From a virus (Duplodnaviria; Caudoviricetes): a stretch of DNA of 59,709 nucleotides. The position numbers and the translations under genes are program-made. The DNA lies in IMG/VR virus record IMGVR_UViG_3300024999_000116, positions 1-59,709 of that record; one strand, given 5' to 3'. Each line of letters begins with the position of its first letter. Within the stretch, counting starts at the first letter, position 1. Under the pieces are notes generated by a model. That model did no database searches. It was not told where the DNA came from and saw only the letters and a program-made list of their open reading frames with translations. This document shows positions 2,923-34,658 of this stretch, piece by piece.

Positions 2923-3411
2923 GCTATGTACACGCTGTACCTATGGACGTTCTTATAATGTGCATTATGTCAACTAGATAAGGCCAAAAGTGCCGTATTT
3001 CCTGCATTTCTTAGTCAGGTGTTCGGTTACTGGTTCCGTTTTTGTCATTGTCCTGCTGTGGTGGACATTTTACCGTACCTGCTCCATTTCACAGGCGCAG
3101 GGTTGTGATACTGTGTTGTACGCACAGAGCGCAGCGCATACGCGAGCAGGGAGCGCAAGCGCACGTATTTAGATAGGATATTCGCCAAAAAGAGGGGGTG
3201 GGGGTCAAACACCCCCGGTATGGATTGGCGGGACTCCGGCGAAGGGTACCTGTACTTTATACTATCACCATCTAACAACATATACATTTTACACAATTTC
3301 ACAAAGTTTATAAATCACTATAATCCAAAAGGAAGTGATTATCGTACTATCAATAATTAAACGCTTCATCCATAACTATTGTCGTATCATACATAAACTA
3401 AATTAAAAGGA

Positions 3412-3782: not shown

Positions 3783-4133
3783 ATGAGCAATGTTAAAAAG
3801 TACCGCAGAAAACCTATTTTTGTTGATGCAGAGCCTTATGTTGATGGCTTGGAAGATGGTTTTTATCAAGGAATTCCTTATATTACTGCCGGACAAATAA
3901 AGATAAAAATATCACCGGGAGATTATATTGCAACAAGACCGGATGGTGCTAGATTCCTCTATGAACCTAAAAACTTCGAGGCGACTTATGAGGAAGTAGA
4001 GAATATGGAAGATACTCGCCCCATATGTCCTGACTGTAAAACTATCATGGTTAAGACTCGTATTGAGTTAAGTGACGGTAGCGGTTGGTTCTCTGGTTGG
4101 GGTTGTGATTGTAAATATGAACCAAAAAGTTAA
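3783..4133 (+). CDS. PGDY-motif phage protein
   Basis: KKYRRKPIFVDA..ISPGDYI..YEPKNFEATYE, a common phage family. Confidence 0.6.
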   Translation: MSNVKKYRRKPIFVDAEPYVDGLEDGFYQGIPYITAGQIKIKISPGDYIATRPDGARFLYEPKNFEATYEEVENMEDTRPICPDCKTIMVKTRIELSDGSGWFSGWGCDCKYEPKS

Positions 4134-7376: not shown

Positions 7377-9488
7377 ATGGACTGGAAAAAACCATTTCGT
7401 GCGTTAAAAAAGAAGGTGAAAGAGATAGTGGCACCTGCTGTAGAATACGATCAAGAGACACTTGACTTGCTTAAATACTGGCAAGATCAGTTCGAGATTG
7501 ACCGTTTCGCTAAGAAAAAATACGATAATCTTATGGATTCATGGGAAAACATGTATAACGGTAATCGTGAATTCGAGAACGTCAATAATAGGCAGGATAG
7601 AGAAGCGAGAACGGTTGTTAACTTCCCTCGCTTGATTATTGAAGCGTTAATTGATATGACTATCCCTGACCACGACTTCAAACCTGTTACCGCTGCCGAT
7701 GAAATACCGGTTAATGCTTTGAAAAGTTACGTTGGTTATGTACTGAGAAGTTCTTCTCCTTCATTAGAAGAAATGAATATGTCGGACGAGCGCAGGGTTT
7801 CAAAGTTGGGCGGTACATTTAAGAAGGTTCACTGGAACAATAATATCAAACGTGCTGGATATGTCGGCGAAATTGAGATTAGTAACCCTCACCCAAAGGA
7901 CATTATACCTAATAAGTCGTCTATTAACTTCGGTGACGACATGGAACATTATCATCATCCGGTTAACCGCACACAGAAGTATATTCTTCGCAAATGGAAA
8001 GATATAACGAAGGATATGCTGGAAGAAAAGGCAATTTTATATGCCGAGTATGATGAGATATTAGGCGACCAGAAAGTTACTACCGTTACCGATACTACCG
8101 GAGTTTCTAAGGATACGGGACTTGGCAAGTATACTATTGTTGAGACTACCTACCGTGACGACGACGGAGATATTTGTAAGTTGTGGTGGTCAGGTGACTT
8201 ACTGATTAAACATCTGCCGAAGTTCTTTTATCGTAGGGATGAGGACGGTAATCCCTATAAGACCGAAACTATAGAAGCAGGTACGCAGATTCGCAAAGGC
8301 TTGGATGAATACGGCAATATTGCCTACCGTGTTATTGATGCCGAAACTGAGGCAGAGTATTATATACCTACCTGCTGGGATATAGTCTATCAACCCTTTA
8401 TTATGCGTGATAAGTGTTGTTGGGGTATATCTATTATGGAAGATGTTTGGGACTTACAGGAGAGTATCAAGAAAGCGGTATTTTCCTATGAAGAAAACTT
8501 CCTAAAGGGCAGGAAGAAAATAATAACAGATTCACAAGAGGCAGGAAGAAAACTTCAAGATCCGACATCCGAGATAATAGTTTTAAACGACCCTGCCACA
8601 ACAAAAGAAGTTGATTTAAGTACAAACATTGACGGGGTGCAATGGGTTAATCAGTTAAAAGAATGGATGCAACTTATTACCGGCGTAACCGATGCCTCAT
8701 TAGGAGTTCATCAACCAGGCGTAACATCAGGCGATCAGGCGCAGGCATATATAAGTCAGTCAAGCAACAAATTAGCAATTAAGTCTGCCTATAAGTCAAC
8801 CTCATATAAGACACTTTACCGTACTATTGCGGAGTTTGCGTTGGCGTTTTGTGATGATGACAGACCTTTCCGTATTACCGGAGAAAAGGGTGAGAATAAA
8901 TACGGTCAGTTTAACCGCTTGTCTATGCTTCGTGATGTTAACGGTGACTTAATTTATCCTGACTTTGATATTGAGATTAGCGCAGAAGTTGGATTTATGA
9001 AGAATAAGTCAGAAATGATGAATTCTATAGTTTCACTTGCAGGACAAGGACGTTTTGAACCTACTCCTGGTAATATGCTGATACTGAAAATACTTGATAA
9101 AATCGGTGTTCCGCACCTTAAAGAAGTTATCGGGCAGATGGAGCAGGATATACAGCAAGCACAGGAGGCCCAAGCAAAGCAGGAAGAACAGGCTAAACTC
9201 ATACAGGAACAACAACTACAACAGAGTACAGATATGATGCTTGCTAAACAGCAGCACGAAAAAGAACTTGCTGTTATAAAACAGCAGGGAGAACTAAACC
9301 GTCAACAGCAATCGCACGACCTCGAAAATAGTAAAGAAGTTATGAGTGGCGAATTGCAGCAGGGCGCAGTTATGAGTTTTGTGGACAAGTTGAATCAGAT
9401 TAAAGAGAACAATCCTGATACCTTTGTTAAAATTATGCAACTACCGGCAGAGCAGCAGGTACAGGCGGTAATGAGTATGATAAGTTAA
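7377..9488 (+). CDS. Portal protein
   Basis: Follows TerL; ~700 aa; ITGVTDASLG motif and Q-rich C-terminal coiled coil as in P22-like portals. Confidence 0.85.
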   Translation: MDWKKPFRALKKKVKEIVAPAVEYDQETLDLLKYWQDQFEIDRFAKKKYDNLMDSWENMYNGNREFENVNNRQDREARTVVNFPRLIIEALIDMTIPDHDFKPVTAADEIPVNALKSYVGYVLRSSSPSLEEMNMSDERRVSKLGGTFKKVHWNNNIKRAGYVGEIEISNPHPKDIIPNKSSINFGDDMEHYHHPVNRTQKYILRKWKDITKDMLEEKAILYAEYDEILGDQKVTTVTDTTGVSKDTGLGKYTIVETTYRDDDGDICKLWWSGDLLIKHLPKFFYRRDEDGNPYKTETIEAGTQIRKGLDEYGNIAYRVIDAETEAEYYIPTCWDIVYQPFIMRDKCCWGISIMEDVWDLQESIKKAVFSYEENFLKGRKKIITDSQEAGRKLQDPTSEIIVLNDPATTKEVDLSTNIDGVQWVNQLKEWMQLITGVTDASLGVHQPGVTSGDQAQAYISQSSNKLAIKSAYKSTSYKTLYRTIAEFALAFCDDDRPFRITGEKGENKYGQFNRLSMLRDVNGDLIYPDFDIEISAEVGFMKNKSEMMNSIVSLAGQGRFEPTPGNMLILKILDKIGVPHLKEVIGQMEQDIQQAQEAQAKQEEQAKLIQEQQLQQSTDMMLAKQQHEKELAVIKQQGELNRQQQSHDLENSKEVMSGELQQGAVMSFVDKLNQIKENNPDTFVKIMQLPAEQQVQAVMSMIS

Positions 9489-9901: not shown

Positions 9902-11023
9902 TTGATAAAAACTTACAAAGTTAGACTTGAACCGAATAAAGAGCAAGAACAAAAGATGTGGCAATCTGCCGGAACCGCTAGATGGGCGTATAACTGGACG
10001 TTGGGTGTACAACAAGAGAATCGCCAAAACGGCGGTAAGTTTATTCAAGACGGTGAGTTGCGTAAAAGTTTAACTAAGTTAAAGAAAACAGAAGAATTTT
10101 GTTGGCTTAAAAAATACTCTAATAATATTACAAAACAAGCAGTTAAGGATGCTTGCAAAGCATATAAATCATTTTTTAATGGCAATAGTAAATTTCCTAA
10201 ATTTAAGAGTAAAAAGAAAAGCAGGACATCATTCTATCAAGATACATCAAATATTAAAATTAATGAAACTCATGCAAGACTAGAAAAAATAGGATGGGTA
10301 AGGTTAAGCGAAACCAATAGAATACCGCAGGGAAGATACTTTAATCCAAGGGTTACGCATGATGGAATACATTGGTTTATATCTGTTGGCGTAGAGGAAT
10401 TTCCTGTATATCCCGAACTAACCAATGAAAGTATTGGTATTGATGTAGGAATTAAGAGTCTTGCTGTAGTCAGTAACGGAATGATATTTAAAAACATTAA
10501 TAAGTCAGGCAAGGTAAAAAAAATCAAAAAGCGTTTGCGTAGGTTGCAACGTAAATGCTCACGAAAATATTATAAAAATGGAAAGGGTGTAAGTTACGAA
10601 AAGACTAGTAACATTATAAAACTTGAAAAATCAATCTTAAAAATTCACCATAAACTAAAAGACATTAAAACTGATTATATCCATAAAACTACTTCCGAGA
10701 TAGTGAAAACCAAACCTTCAAGGGTAGTTATGGAGGATTTGAATATTACAGGAATGATGAAAAATAAGTATCTATCAAAAGCTATTCAGGAACAAAGTCT
10801 ATATGAATTTCACAGGCAAATGCAGTACAAATGCGAGTGGAACGGTATAGAGTTTGTTGTAGCAGATAGGTTTTTCCCATCATCAAAACTTTGTTCGGAG
10901 TGTGGATATATTCATAGGGAATTAAAATTATCTGATAGGACTTATATCTGTCCTGCTTGTGGTAACAAGATAGATAGGGATTATCAGGCAAGTTTAAACC
11001 TATCTAAATACGAATCAGCATAA
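9902..11023 (+). CDS. tnpB: TnpB RNA-guided endonuclease (IS200/IS605/IS607 superfamily)
   Basis: N-terminal HTH_OrfB; RuvC triad intact (GIDVG, VMEDL, DRDYQAS); CSECG/CPACG zinc finger. Confidence 0.93.
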   Translation: MIKTYKVRLEPNKEQEQKMWQSAGTARWAYNWTLGVQQENRQNGGKFIQDGELRKSLTKLKKTEEFCWLKKYSNNITKQAVKDACKAYKSFFNGNSKFPKFKSKKKSRTSFYQDTSNIKINETHARLEKIGWVRLSETNRIPQGRYFNPRVTHDGIHWFISVGVEEFPVYPELTNESIGIDVGIKSLAVVSNGMIFKNINKSGKVKKIKKRLRRLQRKCSRKYYKNGKGVSYEKTSNIIKLEKSILKIHHKLKDIKTDYIHKTTSEIVKTKPSRVVMEDLNITGMMKNKYLSKAIQEQSLYEFHRQMQYKCEWNGIEFVVADRFFPSSKLCSECGYIHRELKLSDRTYICPACGNKIDRDYQASLNLSKYESA

Positions 11024-11187
11024 AACCAATTTTAAAGGTTATGCCGATATGTACCCATAGTTAGTGGGGATTTTAAGCCTTTGGATTGCTACATCAAACA
11101 CGATTAGGATTAATCCGAAAGTGGGCAGGATGAATAAGGAAGAAAACTTTATATGTTTTTGTAACGGATAGGGTATGTGACGATGCT
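11024..11187 (+). ncRNA. Putative TnpB omega-RNA: scaffold ending ...GTAACGG (11167) plus flanking guide
   Basis: Non-coding tail tatgtacccatagttagtgggattttaagcc..gatgaataaggaag..tttttgtaacgg resembles Clostridial tnpB right ends. Boundaries are approximate. Confidence 0.6.
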
Positions 11188-19912: not shown

Positions 19913-21384
19913 TGCCTCCTGTCATTCCGAAGCGTACCGGATCAGCAAACAAGCAGTCACTTAGTATAAAGGGTTTTCGAGGCATCAACGCCCAACATAC
20001 CAGGCAGATAGGCGAACCTTCTGCCGGTAAAAACTTCGTTGTGCAAAACAGTATATTAAGAACCAGGGATGGGTGTAGTTTAGTTACTTCCGATTTTCCT
20101 GCCGCTATCAAAAGCATACATCAAGCACCAAAAGTTGGGATGGAAACTAAACTTGTGGTTGAGGCCGGTACTACTATCTATCGCAGGACAACGGAAGCAG
20201 GGGAATGGGAGGCAATACAGTCATCGTCAACGAGTTATGGGTTTAGTAGTGTATTATGGGCTATCGTTGATGAAAACGGCAGTGTTTCAAGTAATCTATA
20301 CCTGGCCGGTGGTGGTACTAATAAGTTATATGTCTACAGTATTGATACAGGTACTATAGGTGTTTGGAGTAATATGGACCCCATTATGAGTGGCGTTATG
20401 CCGACCATGGAATTCCTTTGTAAACACGAAGGGCGTATGTTCGGTTGGGGTTTAAACTCAGCTTACCCAAACAGAATATATTTTTGCGGATATGACGAAA
20501 CCGATGCAAAAAATGTTAGTGCAGAATATTGGCCGGAGGATTTCTGGCTTGATGTTAGCGGTTCTGCTGCCGAACCTGTTTTGGATGCTATTTCATTAGA
20601 TGGATATATGCTTGTCTTAACTCCGAGAAGACACTACAGGGTTTATTTTGCTGACGAAAGCAATATCAGCATAGACGAAGTCGGGAAAATTGGTATGTAT
20701 AAAGTTAGGTGTGCGGCAAAGGTTGGTAACTACTGCCTATGGTTAACTCAGGAAGATGGCAAATTCAGAGTATACGCCTATTCCGGGAGTGAAGCGGTTC
20801 CCGTTAGTCAGAATGTAGAGGAATTGTTCTCCGATTATTCATTTACAAATGCGTTTGCTTTTGAAAATGGCGGCGAATTCTGGCTTGTGCTGCCCGGTAG
20901 TCCTACGAACAAAACAACGGTATTCGTCTATGATCTAAAGGATTGGTTTATCTATGAGTACCCGTTTGTGATTAACTGCGCCGGTGCTTTCGGTGCGGTG
21001 ACGGGCAGGGAGTATGTTCACCTTGGCCTAAACGATAACCGGATAGTTAAGTTGGATGGCAGTCTGACTGATTTAGGTACGGGTATTACCTCTGAATTAG
21101 TAATAGGTTCAATAAGTTCATTAGGCAGAAAAACAAAAATTAAGCGACTATGGTTAACTGCCGAACCTACTAATGATTTCGATATTGATGTTTACCCTAC
21201 AAGTGACCGGGGAGCAGAAGGATCTGCTATAACTGCTGAGTTTACTACTGGAGTACAGGAAACGGTTGAGGTAAAAATAGCAGGCACTAAGGGTAGAAAC
21301 AATTCACTGAGATTATCTACTACAGACAGGATAAGCGGTCTTAAAAGTGGTTCTATAACTGCGGTAGTGGGGGCGTTAAAGTAA
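19906..21384 (+). CDS. Podovirus tail nozzle/stabilisation protein (beta-propeller)
   Basis: FRGIN..LRTRDG N-terminus; ~490 aa beta-rich; position. Confidence 0.6.
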   Translation: MVMPPVIPKRTGSANKQSLSIKGFRGINAQHTRQIGEPSAGKNFVVQNSILRTRDGCSLVTSDFPAAIKSIHQAPKVGMETKLVVEAGTTIYRRTTEAGEWEAIQSSSTSYGFSSVLWAIVDENGSVSSNLYLAGGGTNKLYVYSIDTGTIGVWSNMDPIMSGVMPTMEFLCKHEGRMFGWGLNSAYPNRIYFCGYDETDAKNVSAEYWPEDFWLDVSGSAAEPVLDAISLDGYMLVLTPRRHYRVYFADESNISIDEVGKIGMYKVRCAAKVGNYCLWLTQEDGKFRVYAYSGSEAVPVSQNVEELFSDYSFTNAFAFENGGEFWLVLPGSPTNKTTVFVYDLKDWFIYEYPFVINCAGAFGAVTGREYVHLGLNDNRIVKLDGSLTDLGTGITSELVIGSISSLGRKTKIKRLWLTAEPTNDFDIDVYPTSDRGAEGSAITAEFTTGVQETVEVKIAGTKGRNNSLRLSTTDRISGLKSGSITAVVGALK

Positions 21385-22508
21385 TGAAAATACCTAAGAC
21401 GGTACAATTAAATTATGGTGATTCTCCGGGGAATAGGAATTTGATTGATGCAATAAACGGTAATATGCGTGCTATTGTTAGTTATTTGCGCCACTTGAAT
21501 ATTCCCGTACCTGATAGTGCTGGAGTTTATGAGACATTGCAAGTAGGCGATACTAAGCAGTTAACGCCAATATCAGCAACTCCGTCCGATGCAACGATAA
21601 CATATACTTCTAGTGATACCGCAATTGCAACGGTAAATTCTGGTGGTTTAGTAACAGCAGTAGCGGCAGGGGAAGTAACAATTACCATAACCGGGGCAAA
21701 GTCAGGTTCGGTTGATGGAACCGTTGATATTGATTTTGTTATTATCCCAAGTACACAAGTAAAACTGGAAATACCTGCAACTATACTGGAATTATTCTTA
21801 GCTAATAATATGGATACTATTGTAGACAAGTATGGAATAAATCCAGCGTTTGTTCGCATGTACCCTAATAAGTGCTGGAATAGTGGTTTTGAGGGTTTTA
21901 ATCCGGTAAATCTTAAACCTCACTACTGGTCAGCAGGTGTGGTAAGTCCAGTTGCTACTTTTAACGGTAATTTTAGCCTTAAACTTACTAATGGTCAGGC
22001 GTGTCAGCAAGAACAGGTTGCAGGTGTGGGAATGGCTGACCCTGCGTGGTGGTCTGAGTTCTCACCTTATACGAGGGTAGCATTTAAGGCTAAGGGTGGT
22101 CCCGTAACGGTAAGTGTACATAAACTATCTGACAACTCAACATTAACCCTAACTGACGAGAATGGGACTATAGGAACATCTATAACCTATGCCTCTGCAT
22201 CTGATTGGTCTGTAGGTCATAGGACATTTAGGGTGGATACATCCGTAACTCCCGGTAAGATATATGTTAAATTTACAGCAGGCGGTACGGTTTACATTGA
22301 TGATGTGGACATAACCCCTGACTTTACGGGTAAGTGGCCTATGCTTTATCAAGATGGGCCTAAGTCTTTAGGTGTGGGTGCGGTGTCTTTTAATCCGGTG
22401 ACGGGAGGGGTGGTGTTAATTCATCCGGTAGGTGTAATACCTGTAGTAATTTTTAATAACGCTTATGATGTACCTGTAGGTAAAAGTACATTTACATTAG
22501 TAAGTTAG
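21384..22508 (+). CDS. Tail protein with Big_2 Ig-like domain
   Basis: LQVGDTKQL..ITYTSSDTAIATVNSGGLVTAVAAGEVTIT. Confidence 0.7.
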   Translation: MKIPKTVQLNYGDSPGNRNLIDAINGNMRAIVSYLRHLNIPVPDSAGVYETLQVGDTKQLTPISATPSDATITYTSSDTAIATVNSGGLVTAVAAGEVTITITGAKSGSVDGTVDIDFVIIPSTQVKLEIPATILELFLANNMDTIVDKYGINPAFVRMYPNKCWNSGFEGFNPVNLKPHYWSAGVVSPVATFNGNFSLKLTNGQACQQEQVAGVGMADPAWWSEFSPYTRVAFKAKGGPVTVSVHKLSDNSTLTLTDENGTIGTSITYASASDWSVGHRTFRVDTSVTPGKIYVKFTAGGTVYIDDVDITPDFTGKWPMLYQDGPKSLGVGAVSFNPVTGGVVLIHPVGVIPVVIFNNAYDVPVGKSTFTLVS

Positions 22509-24607: not shown

Positions 24608-27600
24608 ATGGGTTTTTTTGGAGATTTAGGCGGTAGTAAAAAAGCCAGCAATTCACCTTCCGCAACAAGGTCAAGTAGAGGATTTTTTGATTTTGACGAG
24701 AACGGAAACATTGCAGGACAGGGGCTGGCAGCAATGCCAGTCGCCCCAAAATCTCCTGCAGTTAATAATGATATGGGAAAAAGTGCATATTTTAGACTAG
24801 ATGAAAAATTAGGTGGACGCTTACCTTTTGGTTCGGAAGGACCCTCTTTATCGGATGTTGGTAAAGATATTATAAATCTTCCTAGTATAATAAATAATGC
24901 AGGTAGACAAGCAATGACATTTGGCCAATATAATAAATTCGAGGATTGGCTTGACGAAAAACTAGGTAACACAGGCGCAACGAAAGAAATGAGAGAAAAA
25001 CAAGAACCTAAGTCTTTAGTTGGTGACTTAGGGAATTTAGTCGGTTTTGTTTCCGGTTCAACAATTCCCATTGGTGGCATTGGAAAATTGGTTGATAGGG
25101 GATTAAGACTTGCTCCTGCTACATCAACATTGGGAAAATTGGGCCAAGCGGCATTAAAAAGCGGAACGGCAGGAGGCATTTATGGTGGTACAGAAGCAAC
25201 GCTAAATGGCGAATCTTTGCCTGACATAGCCAAGTTAGCGGCGACAGATGCCGCTATATTTGCAGGTGGTGACGTTGCTCTAAGAGGTGCAGGACAACTA
25301 ATAAGCAAGCTAAGAAAAACGCCGCCACCTGTTGCTGCTCCCAACACGGCAGAATCATTTAGAGAAAAAGTTAGTCGTGATACTGAAAAAAAAGGTACCT
25401 TCTCTGAAAAGGTAGATAAGTTTAATACTCAGTTTATAGACGATTTAGCACCCGCCGAAAAGGTTGAGAAGAATGTTAGGGGCAAGTTGTCTAGTGCAGA
25501 AAATAGCCTTTATAAAACAGCAAGACTATTTAGAGGATCACCTACCAGAGCAAATAATATTATACAGAAGCAACTGAAACCTACAATTGAGAGTATTGAA
25601 AGCCAAGGATTTACTACTTCTGACTTGGGCGACTACGCTTTGGCACATCACGCAAAAGACGTTAATGCCGCAGGAATTAAGTCTGGATTTACGGATGATG
25701 AAATTAATGCAGTTATAACCAAATACGGAACTCCAGAAATGGAGGCGGCGAGACAGGAGTTACTTAAATATAACGACATACTGTTAGACGAACTAGCTAC
25801 AACAGGTGTTATTGATGCAACATTGCCAGCAACACTAAAGGCTAAATGGTCAAACTATATGCCCCTTTTTAGAAGTTTTGACGATAATAAAGTTGACTTT
25901 ACTAATGGTCTAGGAAGTTCACTTGTAAATGCTACTTCGCCAATTAAAAGTTTAAAGGGTTCCAGTAGAAAAGTTATCGACCCATTAGAATCATTAATTA
26001 AAAACACATACCAAAGTATCAATGCCGCAGAGAGAAATAAGGTATCCCTACAAGTAGCAAAACTGGCACTTGATGATACTACCGGAACATTCGTTAAAAG
26101 ATTAGCACCTGGGGCAAATAAAGATAGACTTAATACTGTCTATCTTTTAGAAAACGGTAAAAAGATTTTTTTCGAGGTACAACCTGACGTTTATAAAGCA
26201 CTGAAGTCTCTTGATAAAGAGAGTAGTAACTTTTTAGTTCGACTATTACAGAAACCTGCATCATTATTAAGGGCAGGTGCTACTCTGACACCTGAGTTTA
26301 GTTTTAGAAACCCTGTGCGTGATGTTGTTTCAGCGTTCGTTACTTCTAAATCAGGATTTAACCCTATAACTGATTTTCCGGTTGCTTTTTTTGAGGCACT
26401 AACCAAGGGTAAGGGTATTAATGTTAAAGGAGTTGGAATTGTTAAGCCAAAAGGACTATATGATAATTTTTTAGCCGATAATGGCGGTTATGGCAACATA
26501 CTTTCTATGGATAGAAAACTGCAACAACAGGCACTAAAGGAAATTAGTAAAGGGACGATTAAGGACAAATTCGTCGATATTGCAAGTGGAAAGTCTCTAA
26601 TAAAAGTGCTTAGGGGAATTGCCGATACCACAGAAACAGCAACTAAATTAGGCGAGTATAGGGCGGCACTCAGAAGTGTGGTAAGTAGACCTGAGGCGGC
26701 GTATAGAGCGAGAGACGTTATGGACTTCTCTCGTGCCGGAAGTTCTGTTCGTGAGGCTAATAAAATTGTTGCTTTTCTAAATGCAAACATTCAAGGTAAG
26801 TCGAAACTTATTAGAGCGTTCAAGGAAAATCCAACTGGTTTTACTGCTAAAGCGATAACTTCTATCTCATTGCCAACTGTCGGAGTCTATTTGATGCAGA
26901 AAAATATGGCTAACGATAAGCAGAAGGAATTAATCGCAGATGCCCCCAACTGGCTTAAAAGTAGTTTTTGGCTAATGCCTATACCTGGAACCGATCAGGT
27001 AGCAAGGATACCTAAACCGTTTGACCTAGCACCTGTTTTTGCTAACTCAGTTGAACGGATGATGAAATATGTTGAGGATAACGATCCGGATGCTTTTGAT
27101 GGATATATCAGGGAAACATTCGGAACAATGTCTATACCAACCATGATTACCGGCATAATACCGTTAATTGAGGGTATGGCAAACTATTCATTCTTCCGTC
27201 AAGGACCAATTATACCGCAACGAGAACAGTTTATTAATTTCTCAGACCAGTACGATACTAACACCTCCGAGGTAGCAAAAAAAATAGGAAAAGAAATAGA
27301 CAGTGTGACGGGTGGCGAAGGTACGTTTAAAAACTTCGGTTCCCCACGTATTATTGATAACACTATTCGCGGACTTACTGCTGGACTTGGTTCGCTTGCT
27401 ACCGGCGCAATGGATCAGATACTAGAAAGTACAGGAATGGTTGACGAAAAAAACAAACCAACCAGAAAACCGAGCGAGTTGCCGATAGTTAAAGCATTAT
27501 TGGTTAGCGATACAGGAAGTGGTCAGTCAATGACAGACTTATATAAGTTAAGAGATAAACTTATGCGAGAAAAAGGTTCTGCTGAAATAGGGAAAAACTC

Positions 27601-27799
27601 TTTTAAAGGCAAGGCAGAATTAAGGTTTGTAACGAAGGCAACGGACGATATAGGAAAAATTACTAAGATTATGCGACAAGTTGAAAACAACCCCAAAATC
27701 AATAGTGACATTAAGCGAAAGAGGTTGGACGAATTGAATAAGCGGAGAAATACTATAGCATCAAGTGTAATGGAACGCATTAATTCGGCTAAAAAATAA
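24608..27799 (+). CDS. Large ejection/polyvalent protein with C-terminal LPD38-like domain
   Basis: RNPVRD, DFSRAG..AFLNANIQG, FWLMPIP..RIPKPFDL, NYSFFRQGPIIP. Confidence 0.7.
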   Translation: MGFFGDLGGSKKASNSPSATRSSRGFFDFDENGNIAGQGLAAMPVAPKSPAVNNDMGKSAYFRLDEKLGGRLPFGSEGPSLSDVGKDIINLPSIINNAGRQAMTFGQYNKFEDWLDEKLGNTGATKEMREKQEPKSLVGDLGNLVGFVSGSTIPIGGIGKLVDRGLRLAPATSTLGKLGQAALKSGTAGGIYGGTEATLNGESLPDIAKLAATDAAIFAGGDVALRGAGQLISKLRKTPPPVAAPNTAESFREKVSRDTEKKGTFSEKVDKFNTQFIDDLAPAEKVEKNVRGKLSSAENSLYKTARLFRGSPTRANNIIQKQLKPTIESIESQGFTTSDLGDYALAHHAKDVNAAGIKSGFTDDEINAVITKYGTPEMEAARQELLKYNDILLDELATTGVIDATLPATLKAKWSNYMPLFRSFDDNKVDFTNGLGSSLVNATSPIKSLKGSSRKVIDPLESLIKNTYQSINAAERNKVSLQVAKLALDDTTGTFVKRLAPGANKDRLNTVYLLENGKKIFFEVQPDVYKALKSLDKESSNFLVRLLQKPASLLRAGATLTPEFSFRNPVRDVVSAFVTSKSGFNPITDFPVAFFEALTKGKGINVKGVGIVKPKGLYDNFLADNGGYGNILSMDRKLQQQALKEISKGTIKDKFVDIASGKSLIKVLRGIADTTETATKLGEYRAALRSVVSRPEAAYRARDVMDFSRAGSSVREANKIVAFLNANIQGKSKLIRAFKENPTGFTAKAITSISLPTVGVYLMQKNMANDKQKELIADAPNWLKSSFWLMPIPGTDQVARIPKPFDLAPVFANSVERMMKYVEDNDPDAFDGYIRETFGTMSIPTMITGIIPLIEGMANYSFFRQGPIIPQREQFINFSDQYDTNTSEVAKKIGKEIDSVTGGEGTFKNFGSPRIIDNTIRGLTAGLGSLATGAMDQILESTGMVDEKNKPTRKPSELPIVKALLVSDTGSGQSMTDLYKLRDKLMREKGSAEIGKNSFKGKAELRFVTKATDDIGKITKIMRQVENNPKINSDIKRKRLDELNKRRNTIASSVMERINSAKK

Positions 27800-28029: not shown

Positions 28030-28233
28030 TTAATTTTTATCAACAAACTCCAATATTTCTCCTGGGTTACATTCTAATGCAAAGCATAGACGCTCTATAA
28101 CTTCCAGGGAAACATATTGATTTGTGTTTAATTTGGCCATAGTACCGCCAGATATTTTAGCTTGTTTCATTATATCTTGTTTCTTTATATTTCTATCAAT
28201 CAGTATTTTTTGAAATAGTTTATAACTAACCAT
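28030..28233 (-). CDS. Xre/Cro-C1 HTH regulator (HTH_26-like)
   Basis: MVSYKLFQKILIDR..VSLEVIERLCFALECNPGEILEF. Confidence 0.85.
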   Translation of the reverse strand: MVSYKLFQKILIDRNIKKQDIMKQAKISGGTMAKLNTNQYVSLEVIERLCFALECNPGEILEFVDKN

Positions 28234-28322
28234 TGTGAATGTACCTCCTAAAACATATTATTCTATCTTATATATTTATATTAGTATATCAAAAAATATT
28301 TGACAAAACAAATATAATTTCA

Positions 28323-28350
28323 TTGACTTGTAAATTCAATATGTTATAAT
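28323..28350 (+). promoter_or_regulatory. sigma-A promoter of the RAMP-HNH-array operon
   Basis: TTGACT-16-TATAAT with extended TG. Confidence 0.6.
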
Positions 28351-28390
28351 AATATATAAGATGTTATAGATTGTATATAGGAGGTTGGGC

Positions 28391-29023
28391 ATGGGCAAAA
28401 ACATTTTAACGGCAACAATCGAAATAAAAGGAATTAGACCTCTGTTATGGCATGTATTTGGTCCTGATTCTCTGCCGCTTGAAAAACAGGAGAGGACAGG
28501 AGTTGCCGGACACGATCCGGAGGAATGGCGCAAAACTTATGTAGCAACCAAGAGTGGACAACTATATTTGCCTGGTTCTTATTTTTTCGGAACCTATATT
28601 GCAGGTGCTAAGTTTATTAAGAAGGGTAAGGGTTCAATTCAAAGCATGGTATCAGCAACATTGCAGGTACTCGATGATAAGGTTTTGATTAACAGACACC
28701 TACCGGAAGATATTCACGAAAAACCGCATAAGTATTACAATGCTGACGAAGAATTGGTTTATATTGACGTTCGCTCAGTACGTAATCCGTCAACCAAGGC
28801 AAGAAACATTCGTTATCGCGTTGCAACTTGTCATGGATGGGAATGTAAATTTTCGATAATGTTTGACAAGACGGTTGTTAGTCGCCAGGAAATGCACGCA
28901 GCCATTATTGATGCAGGTAAGTTATCCGGCATTGGTGATGGTCGCTCTGTGGGATACGGAAGGTTTGAAGTGTTATCTTTTGAAATACAGGAGGAAGATA
29001 ATGCCAAGGAAAAGACCTCCTAA
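28391..29023 (+). CDS. Stand-alone Cas7/RAMP-superfamily protein (Vipr-like)
   Basis: ATG 28391 after GGAGG. First strand ATIEIKGIRPLL, LYLPGSYFFG (cf. RAMP YIPGSSxKG), and C-terminal Gly-rich loop GIGDGRSVGYGRFEV. Confidence 0.8.
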   Translation: MGKNILTATIEIKGIRPLLWHVFGPDSLPLEKQERTGVAGHDPEEWRKTYVATKSGQLYLPGSYFFGTYIAGAKFIKKGKGSIQSMVSATLQVLDDKVLINRHLPEDIHEKPHKYYNADEELVYIDVRSVRNPSTKARNIRYRVATCHGWECKFSIMFDKTVVSRQEMHAAIIDAGKLSGIGDGRSVGYGRFEVLSFEIQEEDNAKEKTS

Positions 29024-29291
29024 AGAAATATGGCAAAAGTTAAGGATAATAGTCTGGAATCGTGACGGAGGTAAATGTAAACACTGTCACGAACCAGTTG
29101 ACTTAAATAAATGTCACATAGATCATATTCGTTCTGGTAAACTAGGAACCAATAAACTAAACAATCTTAGAACTCTATGTCGTTGCTGTCATGTTTTGCG
29201 TGATGATGGGCGGCATAGGGGGATGATTAGTAAAGCACTTAAGGATGGTATTATTCCTCCGAATTGGCGGGAGTTAGTTTGGGGTGATTAA
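29001..29291 (+). CDS. HNH endonuclease translationally coupled to the RAMP gene
   Basis: ATG 29001 after AGGAGG; RDGGKCKHC..HIDHI..GTNKLNNLRTLCRCCH. Confidence 0.85.
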   Translation: MPRKRPPKEIWQKLRIIVWNRDGGKCKHCHEPVDLNKCHIDHIRSGKLGTNKLNNLRTLCRCCHVLRDDGRHRGMISKALKDGIIPPNWRELVWGD

Positions 29292-29300
29292 TATATATGC

Positions 29301-29395
29301 GGCGGGGACTGATTTGGAGTGGAGAGATATGTTTAGGTGTGGTGAGTTGGGGACCGGCGTGGTGCGGTTAGGTAGGGCGAGGTAAGATAGGACGA
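29301..29395 (+). repeat. Phased pentamer array 1 (19 units, G(G)H-NN): putative guide RNA
   Basis: ggcgg ggact gattt ggagt ggaga gatat gttta ggtgt ggtga gttgg ggacc ggcgt ggtgc ggtta ggtag ggcga ggtaa gatag gacga; 19/19 start with G, 13/19 with GG. Confidence 0.85.
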
Positions 29396-29397
29396 TA

Positions 29398-29462
29398 TTA
29401 TTGAAACAGGGGTAAAACCCTGTTCGCAGGAGGTGACTGTCCTGCGCTGATGAGATAAGTTA
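29398..29462 (+). ncRNA. Type II hammerhead ribozyme
   Basis: GAAA 29403-06; stem III ACAGGG/CCCUGU; GUU cleavage triplet 29422-24; stem I CGCAGGA/UCCUGCG; CUGAUGA 29447-53; open stem II UUAUU/GAUAA. Confidence 0.85.
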
Positions 29463-29472
29463 AATAATACGA

Positions 29473-29557
29473 GTTTTGGAGTGGAGGGGTCGGGTCCGGA
29501 ATGGAGTGTCCCGGCGGGGATAGGTATGGTGAGGCGGGGTATGTCTAGGCGAGGGTA
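29473..29557 (+). repeat. Phased pentamer array 2 (17 units, G(G)H-NN): putative guide RNA
   Basis: gtttt ggagt ggagg ggtcg ggtcc ggaat ggagt gtccc ggcgg ggata ggtat ggtga ggcgg ggtat gtcta ggcga gggta; 17/17 start with G, 14/17 with GG. Confidence 0.85.
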
Positions 29558-29560
29558 ATA

Positions 29561-29596
29561 AAAAATAACCACATCTTAATCGATGTGGTTATTTTT
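29561..29596. terminator. Bidirectional intrinsic terminator
   Basis: aaaaataaccacatc-ttaatc-gatgtggttattttt, a perfect 15-bp inverted repeat. Confidence 0.85.
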
Positions 29597-29801
29597 CGTC
29601 CGACACGTATTCTAGTAAGTCGCCTGGGTGACATTTAAGGGCAGTACAAATTCTATCTATTACCGACACGTCAATTCTGGTGATGTTTCCGTTATACATT
29701 GCATACAGAGTATTCTTATTAACTCCGCTTAACTCGTGTAGTTTAGGAACTTTCATTCTATCTCTGTCGAACATAATTTTGTCTAAATTAAATTTTATCA
29801 A
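29589..29801 (-). CDS. Xre/Cro-C1 HTH regulator (HTH_26-like)
   Basis: TTG 29801 after GGAGGTG; IKFNLDKIM..RIDVSVIDRICTALKCHPGDLLEY. Confidence 0.85.
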   Translation of the reverse strand: MIKFNLDKIMFDRDRMKVPKLHELSGVNKNTLYAMYNGNITRIDVSVIDRICTALKCHPGDLLEYVSDEK

Positions 29802-29883
29802 CTTCGATACACCTCCATGAAGTATATTATACAACGATGCACAAATAAAAGCAACTGAATTTGATATTTTATACACATAAGTA

Positions 29884-34582: not shown

Positions 34583-34658
34583 TGGCTGTGAAGGTAGGTC
34601 TCGAACCTACGACAAGTTGATTAACAGTCAACCACTCTACCTACTAAACTACTTCACA
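34583..34658 (-). tRNA. trnN: tRNA-Asn(GTT), CCA encoded
   Basis: TGTGAAG/CTTCACA acceptor, G73, anticodon arm GTTGA-CTGTTAA-TCAAC, T-arm GTAGG-TTCGAGA-CCTAC; 76 nt. Confidence 0.9.

Follow-up and report, generated by a model that had tools for sequence, protein, structure and literature searches.

The 59.7-kb stretch of phage DNA analyzed here (hereafter, the window) carries two arrays of pentamer repeats on its plus strand, with a motif resembling a self-cleaving ribozyme between them, which raises the question of how two guide RNAs that would share one transcript are separated from each other. The original prediction for this locus was that a type II hammerhead placed between the arrays stands in for a Cas6-type nuclease. 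RNA-guided DNA recognition of the kind called VIPR (Viral Interference Programmable Repeat) has been described only recently and is proposed to predate CRISPR; the maturation of its multi-guide transcripts matters both for understanding its evolution and for applying it as a compact tool. Judging from the sequence and from its relatives, we consider it highly likely that positions 28323 to 29596 make up a single transcription unit, that of a VIPR system carried by the phage, and that the hammerhead within it separates the two guides.

Architecture of the module and identity of the system

In the main text and legends of the VIPR preprint (bioRxiv 10.64898/2026.04.26.720920, dated 2026-06-25), the Vipr protein is described as an ancestral RAMP of about 20 kDa, and the guide, or vrRNA, as 9 to 16 YNNGG repeats with a tail at the 3′ end; it is through the NN dinucleotides that double-stranded DNA is read, one base in three being skipped, and most of the systems, which carry an accessory vap gene, belong to phages or prophages. 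A second preprint (bioRxiv 10.64898/2026.04.26.720927) reports a helical filament with one Vipr protomer per repeat, whose assembly runs from the 3′ pseudoknot toward the 5′ end; filament formation and programmable DNA binding are known there for the SUSP1 and P. fulva systems only.

All features of the window module lie on the plus strand. The module opens with a putative sigma-70-like promoter (28323 to 28350; TTGACT, a 16-nt spacer and TATAAT, with TG before the −10 element), a consensus match only, which with 11 of 12 matching positions is the best such site within 28200 to 29700. It is followed by vipr (28391 to 29023), which encodes a 210-amino-acid single-domain RAMP protein assigned to the Vipr family by profile and predicted-structure matches, and by vap (29001 to 29291), which overlaps the 3′ end of vipr and encodes a 96-amino-acid HNH endonuclease (Pfam HNH PF01844; E value 1.7e-5, 25.3 bits against a cut-off of 21.4). 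By period-5 detection and register reading, the repeat tract of vrRNA 1 (29301 to 29395) consists of 19 pentamer units in one register, with G at position 1 in 19/19 units, G at position 2 in 13/19, and a pyrimidine at position 3 in 15/19; the tract of vrRNA 2 (29473 to 29557) has 17 units, for which the corresponding counts are 17/17, 14/17, and 11/17. The detector itself placed the arrays at 29316 to 29395 and 29473 to 29562 and found no other period-5 G-rich array in the 59.7 kb on either strand; the ribozyme does sit between the two arrays, as had been proposed. An inverted-repeat search located a 15-bp hairpin at 29561 to 29596, 100% complementary and with a U run ending its 3′ arm, which is likely an intrinsic terminator and the 3′ end of vrRNA 2; the hairpin is absent from the consensus terminator scan, and the terminator call is our reading of its sequence.

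The first two units are identical in both window arrays (GGAGT GGAG), and the last two to three pentamers are conserved in most arrays as variants of GGYRA-GGTAA-GG (29376 to 29395 and 29548 to 29558 in the window; likewise in loci L001, L003, and L081 to L083). Because the array ends are conserved or identical, the outer units are probably constant handles rather than guide positions, and since the outer units of the window arrays are degenerate or conserved, the guide part is probably shorter than 19 and 17 units.

On either side of the module lie minus-strand genes for HTH_26 (Cro/C1-type) proteins (28030 to 28233 and 29589 to 29876), and this bracketing gives the module the look of an inserted cassette. 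The second HTH_26 gene, whose open reading frame ends at 29589, shares its last codons with the 15-bp hairpin, which could act as a terminator from both directions. A blastn search of 28300 to 29700 against the phage collection returned no match. Directly upstream, a 1,063-amino-acid protein with an LPD38 domain is encoded on the plus strand (24608 to 27799), and further phage hallmarks on that strand are a P22-like portal protein (7377 to 9488) and a Big_2 domain protein (21384 to 22508). A phage-encoded tRNA-Asn with anticodon GTT lies on the minus strand (34583 to 34658; ARAGORN, and Rfam tRNA with 62.3 bits). The plus strand also holds a 373-amino-acid TnpB-like open reading frame (9902 to 11023; Pfam HTH_OrfB_IS605, OrfB_IS605, and Cas12f1-like TNB), followed after 55 nt by a RAGATH-18 RNA (11078 to 11141; Rfam 62.2 bits, above gathering). 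IS607-type TnpB proteins are reported to use RNAs derived from RAGATH-18 as guides (PMC11061315), so this phage would carry two unrelated RNA-guided systems.

The identity of the 210-amino-acid protein was examined by profile and structure comparison. It has no Pfam family, and PADLOC gives weak Cas6 and Csm4 matches; 1,328 homologues were found at E values of 1e-3 or below, and among the 120 homologues listed none has a Pfam family, those named by their source are called hypothetical, and identities of about 60% extend across several phyla. A profile of 27 homologues had a sole match in the PDB, chain 36pp_D ("SUSP1 Vipr protein"; E value 5.9e-9), and the match runs nearly end to end (profile positions 9 to 192 against chain positions 6 to 190). 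For the AF2 model (pLDDT 78.1), the top Foldseek matches were chains of effector complexes, type III-A Csm and type VII (E values of about 3e-9, TM scores of 0.43 to 0.56); in our reading these chains are Csm3, the Cas7-family subunit. The C-terminal loop GDGRxxGxGRF is invariant, as expected of Vipr, a small single-RRM RAMP with a glycine-rich loop.

The repeat code and the gene context point the same way. Over 3,659 units in 225 arrays, the frequencies within the repeat unit are G 0.89, G 0.87, pyrimidine 0.82, N, N, where the period-5 detector itself accounts in part for the two G positions but not for the pyrimidine at position 3. Pentamer arrays stand beside vipr in 72 of 79 loci, and the arrays of loci L080 to L083, whose Vipr proteins are 94 to 97% identical to that of the window, differ in sequence and in number, so that the NN positions are hypervariable. 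Of the 142 distinct loci, 129 have an HNH homologue downstream of vipr in the same orientation; the other 13 include 11 cut contigs. By its Vipr protein, its repeat code, the variability of its arrays among close relatives, and its accessory gene, the window locus is a VIPR locus; its HNH vap would place the system in one of the nuclease-bearing types III to V, and the HNH protein is likely the effector nuclease. CRISPR-Cas with Cas6 processing was rejected, as there are no CRISPR-type direct repeats and no other cas genes among the ten open reading frames scanned. Readings of the period-5 arrays as G-quadruplexes, as sites for TRAP-like ring binding, or as DNA-level repeats were dropped after the match to the solved Vipr and the VIPR papers.

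Possible targets of the two guides were sought within the window and in viral contigs. With skip rules 0 to 3, the best self-target scores were 22/38 and 21/34, within the range of shuffled guides, and the perfect self-scores at skip 3 are the arrays themselves. Exact 10- and 11-unit patterns of both guides had no match in the IMG/VR viral contigs. Exact 8-unit seeds of vrRNA 2 gave four IMG/VR matches with 20 to 22 of 34 positions agreeing overall and no extension, and those of vrRNA 1 gave two near-identical matches (25/38), in which three of the four bases 3′ of the seed agree; these seed matches lack extension and were judged to be chance. As these searches found no DNA target for either guide, the guide role at the window locus rests on homology.

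The hammerhead at 29398 to 29462

[quoted passage not shown] The core segments are GAAA (29403 to 29406) and CUGAUGA (29447 to 29453). Stem III has 6 bp, namely the A29406-U29423 pair (A15.1-U16.1) and CAGGG (29407 to 29411) paired with CCCUG (29418 to 29422), and is capped by the loop GUAAAA; stem I has 7 bp (CGCAGGA, 29425 to 29431, with UCCUGCG, 29440 to 29446). The last base of the cleavage triplet GUU, U29424, occupies position H17, and the cut is predicted between 29424 and 29425. The strands of stem II are GAUAA (29454 to 29458) and UUAUU (29398 to 29402), closed by the wobble pair G29454-U29402, and the UGACU segment of loop I (29434 to 29438) can form a candidate pseudoknot with AGUUA (29458 to 29462). 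Because A29458 is common to the fifth pair of stem II and to the pseudoknot, stem II really comprises 3 to 4 bp with the pseudoknot next to it; a short stem II followed by the pseudoknot agrees with the Hammerhead_II family consensus. All catalytic core positions are present: C3, U4, G5, A6, N7, G8, and A9; G12, A13, and A14; the A15.1-U16.1 pair; and an H17 that is not G. Every element named in the original prediction (core, stems, triplet, loop, G-U closure, and pseudoknot) was recovered at its place by reading the sequence.

The predicted membership in Hammerhead_II (Rfam RF02276) was borne out by an alignment of 29399 to 29464 with the full length of the model (1 to 66 of 66; 35.8 bits, E value 1.2e-5 for 501 nt searched), but the score lies 1.2 bits below the gathering score of 37, which is a curators' cut-off and not a structural feature. 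It is because of this score that the motif is missing from the Rfam scan of the whole window at gathering level, which listed the tRNA and RAGATH-18 only. As an isolated 73-nt RNA, the element adopts stems III and I in its minimum-free-energy fold (−23 kcal/mol; z score −3.82), and 0 of 200 shuffled sequences were as stable. A covariance model, R1, built from an alignment of 37 related hammerheads (see below), matches once in the entire 59.7 kb on both strands, at 29395 to 29467, with 63.8 bits and an E value of 1.4e-15, the window sequence being one of the 37 used for training.

Stem II is rich in A-U pairs, and its closing pair, G10.1-U11.1, replaces the canonical G10.1-C11.1. Among the 37 aligned hammerheads the closing pair is C-G in 31, U-G in 3 (the window and two others), and another pair in 3; a G10.1-C11.1 closing pair is usual rather than defining for type II hammerheads. 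The pseudoknot between loop I and the 3′ tail is needed for fast cleavage by type II hammerheads, as reported by Perreault et al. (2011; PMC3088659). The segment 29398 to 29462 is a genuine type II hammerhead and is very probably active in self-cleavage.

Hammerheads in related VIPR loci

Viral, genome, and metagenome collections yielded 159 related loci, which reduce to 142 distinct ones, the window included. A structural regular expression gave 44 matches, 43 on the vipr strand and one on the other; after leaving out the minus-strand window match and one at L086:145, both spurious, and one L056 copy that runs off its locus, we aligned 37 unique hammerhead sequences from Vipr loci. In this alignment 94.8% of the cells pair, against 73.4% in shuffled alignments (0 of 500 as high), although pairing in stems I and III arises partly by construction, being required by the regular expression; when the partners are slid by one to three columns, pairing is at most 44.6%. 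Changes on both sides are seen at 19 of the 23 pairs, pseudoknot included. Stem II and the pseudoknot, which the expression did not require, are paired at 89.2% and 88.1%, respectively, and four of the five pseudoknot pairs have changes on both sides.

The tertiary pair C3-G8 is C-G in 34 of the 37 rows and U-A in the other 3. Copies of the latter kind read UUGAYAA where the others have the core CUGANGA; both partners of the tertiary pair have changed, so that it persists as U3-A8. They are found at L081:2509-2580, L083:1193-1264, L056:3500-3573, and L056:3671-3738 (one of the L056 copies lies outside the alignment). A U3-A8 covariation is also reported in hammerheads of Penelope-like elements (PMC4209133).

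Searched against both strands of 670,426 bases, R1 gave 45 matches at E values of 1 or below, all of them on the vipr strand and 5 of them copies of one contig. Four matches fall outside the training set (L086:948-1015, L113:1199-1272, and cut ones in L107 and L056). The 41 matches listed for 20 distinct loci each stand beside a pentamer array, and the hammerhead overlaps or touches the array in every hammerhead locus except L153, where the gap is 58 nt. Hammerheads adjoining pentamer arrays, which the original prediction had proposed to look for in homologous loci, occur in 20 of the 142 distinct loci and always on the coding strand. They accompany the gene order vipr-HNH-arrays, with HNH directly after vipr, in 18 of 68 loci, whereas only 2 of 61 loci with a vipr-HNH gap of at least 60 nt (the order vipr-array-HNH) have them. 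In 13 of the 20 loci a hammerhead also lies upstream of the first array, whereas the other 7, including the window, have none there.

Close relatives of the window differ in this element. In locus L001 (87% Vipr identity) a hammerhead occupies the corresponding position, but its stems are different and its pseudoknot is a perfect 7 bp (Rfam score 36.3 bits), and in L081 (96%) and L083 (94%) hammerheads with unrelated stems and the U3-A8 core occupy that place; the nearest relatives, L080 (97%) and L082 (95%), are without one. The absence from L080 and L082, and the presence in 20 of 142 loci, indicate that the ribozyme is optional for the VIPR system. On a quick Vipr tree of 128 rows, in which some rows counted as hammerhead free are cut contigs, the hammerhead label requires 10 changes, at least 5 of them forced by well-supported branches, against a mean of 18.0 for shuffled labels (0 of 500 as low). 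The trait is clustered on the tree, yet it has often been gained or lost.

The largest ribozyme-guide array among the loci surveyed lies at L045:3362-4225 in a cultured strain (Marinithermofilum abyssi contig NZ_BMHQ01000020.1) and comprises eight hammerheads spaced about 120 to 145 nt apart, with short pentamer tracts between them. Cultured Bacillota are the source of the L045, L048, and L064 contigs, all of which carry hammerhead-VIPR loci. In vipr-arrays-HNH loci, inter-array elements of 26 to 60 nt are conserved among the copies of a locus and from one related locus to another (L003:3690-3735 and 3830-3870; L026:3195-3250 and 3310-3365; L059:3205-3255; L018:3230-3285; L019:3205-3260). Those of L003, L026, and L018, which are without hammerheads, gave no credible Rfam match at E values of 10 or below; a ribozyme reading was set aside because no Rfam family matched, and such elements may be vrRNA 3′ tails or processing signals. 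An Rfam search of 12 loci at E values of 1 or below found nothing relevant and was judged insensitive, since it missed the hammerheads of L012 and L056.

The comparison also bears on other explanations of the window element. It is very unlikely that the hammerhead is a relic, decaying or very slow, and that the vrRNAs are separated, or trimmed to the Vipr-protected tract, by host ribonucleases. Such decay would be in keeping with the Rfam score below gathering and with a weak stem II closed by a G-U wobble, and 122 of 142 loci manage without hammerheads, 46 of them with at least two arrays split by other elements; but the catalytic nucleotides of the window copy are all intact, it has the pseudoknot on which fast cleavage depends, an element that covaries across loci, and the same G-U closure recurs in two other aligned hammerheads. 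In the close relatives L081 and L083, moreover, the core has undergone the paired U3-A8 change and not a single disabling one, and this speaks for selection on activity.

We think it very improbable that the ribozyme is active with a different main role, either to provide a structured 5′ leader or 3′ tail for Vipr or to uncouple the guides from the vipr-HNH mRNA and thereby control their stability. In the window the single copy stands between the guides, with none between HNH and vrRNA 1, and vrRNA 2 ends in a terminator hairpin and not in a hammerhead fragment, so that a hammerhead-derived tail cannot be obligatory. This explanation draws instead on other loci: 13 of the 20 have a hammerhead before the first array, and in four of these 13 (L061, L072, L077, and L078) that array is the only one, so that the cut there would free guide from mRNA and not guide from guide, and in all hammerhead loci but L153 the arrays abut the hammerhead with no separate tail. 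A chance match in the A-T-rich spacer is refuted in practice, for although a loosened regular expression allowing U3-A8 gave the spurious matches on the window minus strand and in L086, the Rfam E value is 1.2e-5, R1 matches the window once, and an element with covarying stems recurs at the same place in related loci.

Guide maturation and comparison with known systems

Separation of the two window guides by hammerhead self-cleavage is, from the sequence comparison, the most likely course of events. The hammerhead would fold during transcription and cut itself between U29424 and C29425, so that the two vrRNAs would come apart without any Cas6-like protein. The 3′ end of vrRNA 1 would be extended by 29 nt, down to and including the stem III hairpin, and by hammerhead chemistry would carry a 2′,3′-cyclic phosphate, whereas vrRNA 2 would begin with a 5′-OH and the stem I hairpin, a remnant of the core, and end in the terminator hairpin. 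As in the published VIPR work, Vipr protomers would then coat each GGY/NN tract, one per pentamer, and the NN dinucleotides would read double-stranded DNA with every third base skipped. The products foreseen originally, guide 1 with a 3′ hairpin and guide 2 with a 5′ hairpin plus terminator, agree with the elements found here: the stem III hairpin, the stem I hairpin, and the 15-bp hairpin (29561 to 29596), respectively. The sequencing runs that hold the locus or part of it are four DNA runs from one study, with no RNA run among them. With a ribozyme between the guides no processing protein would be needed, and guide arrays of this kind could be expressed in any host.

A further and more tentative possibility, which we regard as somewhat doubtful, goes beyond separation: the hammerhead halves would be functional guide handles, and guide-plus-ribozyme cassettes would be exchanged between phages as units. 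The stem III hairpin may serve as the 3′ tail on which the Vipr filament starts, a part played in the SUSP1 clade by a pseudoknotted tail, and a 5′ cap may be formed by the stem I hairpin with the core remnant. Such exchange would explain why loci with 94 to 97% identical Vipr proteins have hammerheads with unrelated stems, a U3-A8 core, or none, and likewise the association of hammerheads with the vipr-HNH-array order and their rarity with vipr-array-HNH.

Maturation by self-cleavage can be set against the processing of CRISPR RNAs. In class 1 CRISPR-Cas systems, Cas6 cuts the pre-crRNA at a fixed site in a structured element between the guides; the cut leaves a 2′,3′-cyclic phosphate and a 5′-OH, and part of the element stays on each guide as a hairpin. 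The arrangement proposed for the window is alike in having a fixed-site cut in a multi-guide precursor and a hairpin remnant on each guide, but here the RNA would be the catalyst, and there is no repeat-spacer array and there are no Cas6 or adaptation genes. In contrast to CRISPR guides, moreover, a VIPR guide is a pentamer-repeat tract that is read discontinuously. Engineered ribozyme-guide-ribozyme cassettes, which combine a hammerhead with HDV, are a laboratory design for the expression of CRISPR guides; in both cases self-cleaving ribozymes free guides from a longer transcript, whereas the VIPR arrangement is natural and uses hammerheads only.

Among natural hammerheads, the closest parallel is the type II group of bacteria and prophages, in which multiple copies flank short gene blocks (Perreault et al. 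2011; PMC3088659). The VIPR hammerheads share with those of RF02276 the permuted topology, the pseudoknot directly after a short stem II, and the occurrence of several copies flanking short transcript blocks. Those of Perreault et al. flank protein-coding genes, with a function given there as unknown, whereas the VIPR ones flank non-coding guide RNAs of about 85 to 95 nt; the window copy in particular departs from that group in its G10.1-U11.1 closing pair and its position 1.2 bits under the gathering score.

The nearest comparison is with the published VIPR arrays. The proposal that a ribozyme replaces a Cas6-type nuclease is supported by the comparison of loci (20 of 142, on the coding strand, with compensatory changes), but its claim to novelty does not hold: guide maturation by ribozymes, thought at the time to be undescribed, has been reported in bioRxiv 10.64898/2026.04.26.720920 as "hammerhead ribozyme-interspersed arrays," confirmed by small-RNA sequencing (figs. 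S19 and S20); the hammerhead-array examples there belong to types I and V, and the small RNAs sequenced to types III and V. The window locus resembles these arrays in its small RAMP Vipr, its vap gene, its tandem GGY/NN guides, and a hammerhead between vrRNAs with an inferred cleavage site; its own vap is an HNH gene. In the main text and legends of that preprint, hammerhead topology, pseudoknot, core variants, and frequency are not stated, and an association with gene order within the HNH clade was not found. Of two other preprints, as far as their available text goes, one on intergenic clustering (10.64898/2026.10.21.760802) recovers period-5 VIPR arrays with no link to hammerheads found, and one on satellite competition (10.64898/2026.10.15.759431) is without the words ribozyme, HNH, maturation, biogenesis, and processed. 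The idea that a ribozyme separates the guides is correct and already in print, and nothing here contradicts or overturns known VIPR work; to that work the locus adds an example of hammerhead-VIPR with an HNH nuclease, and the survey adds, beyond what that main text and those legends give, the type II topology with its covarying pseudoknot, natural U3-A8 cores in some copies, a frequency of 20 in 142 distinct loci of this Vipr clade, and the tracking of one gene order.
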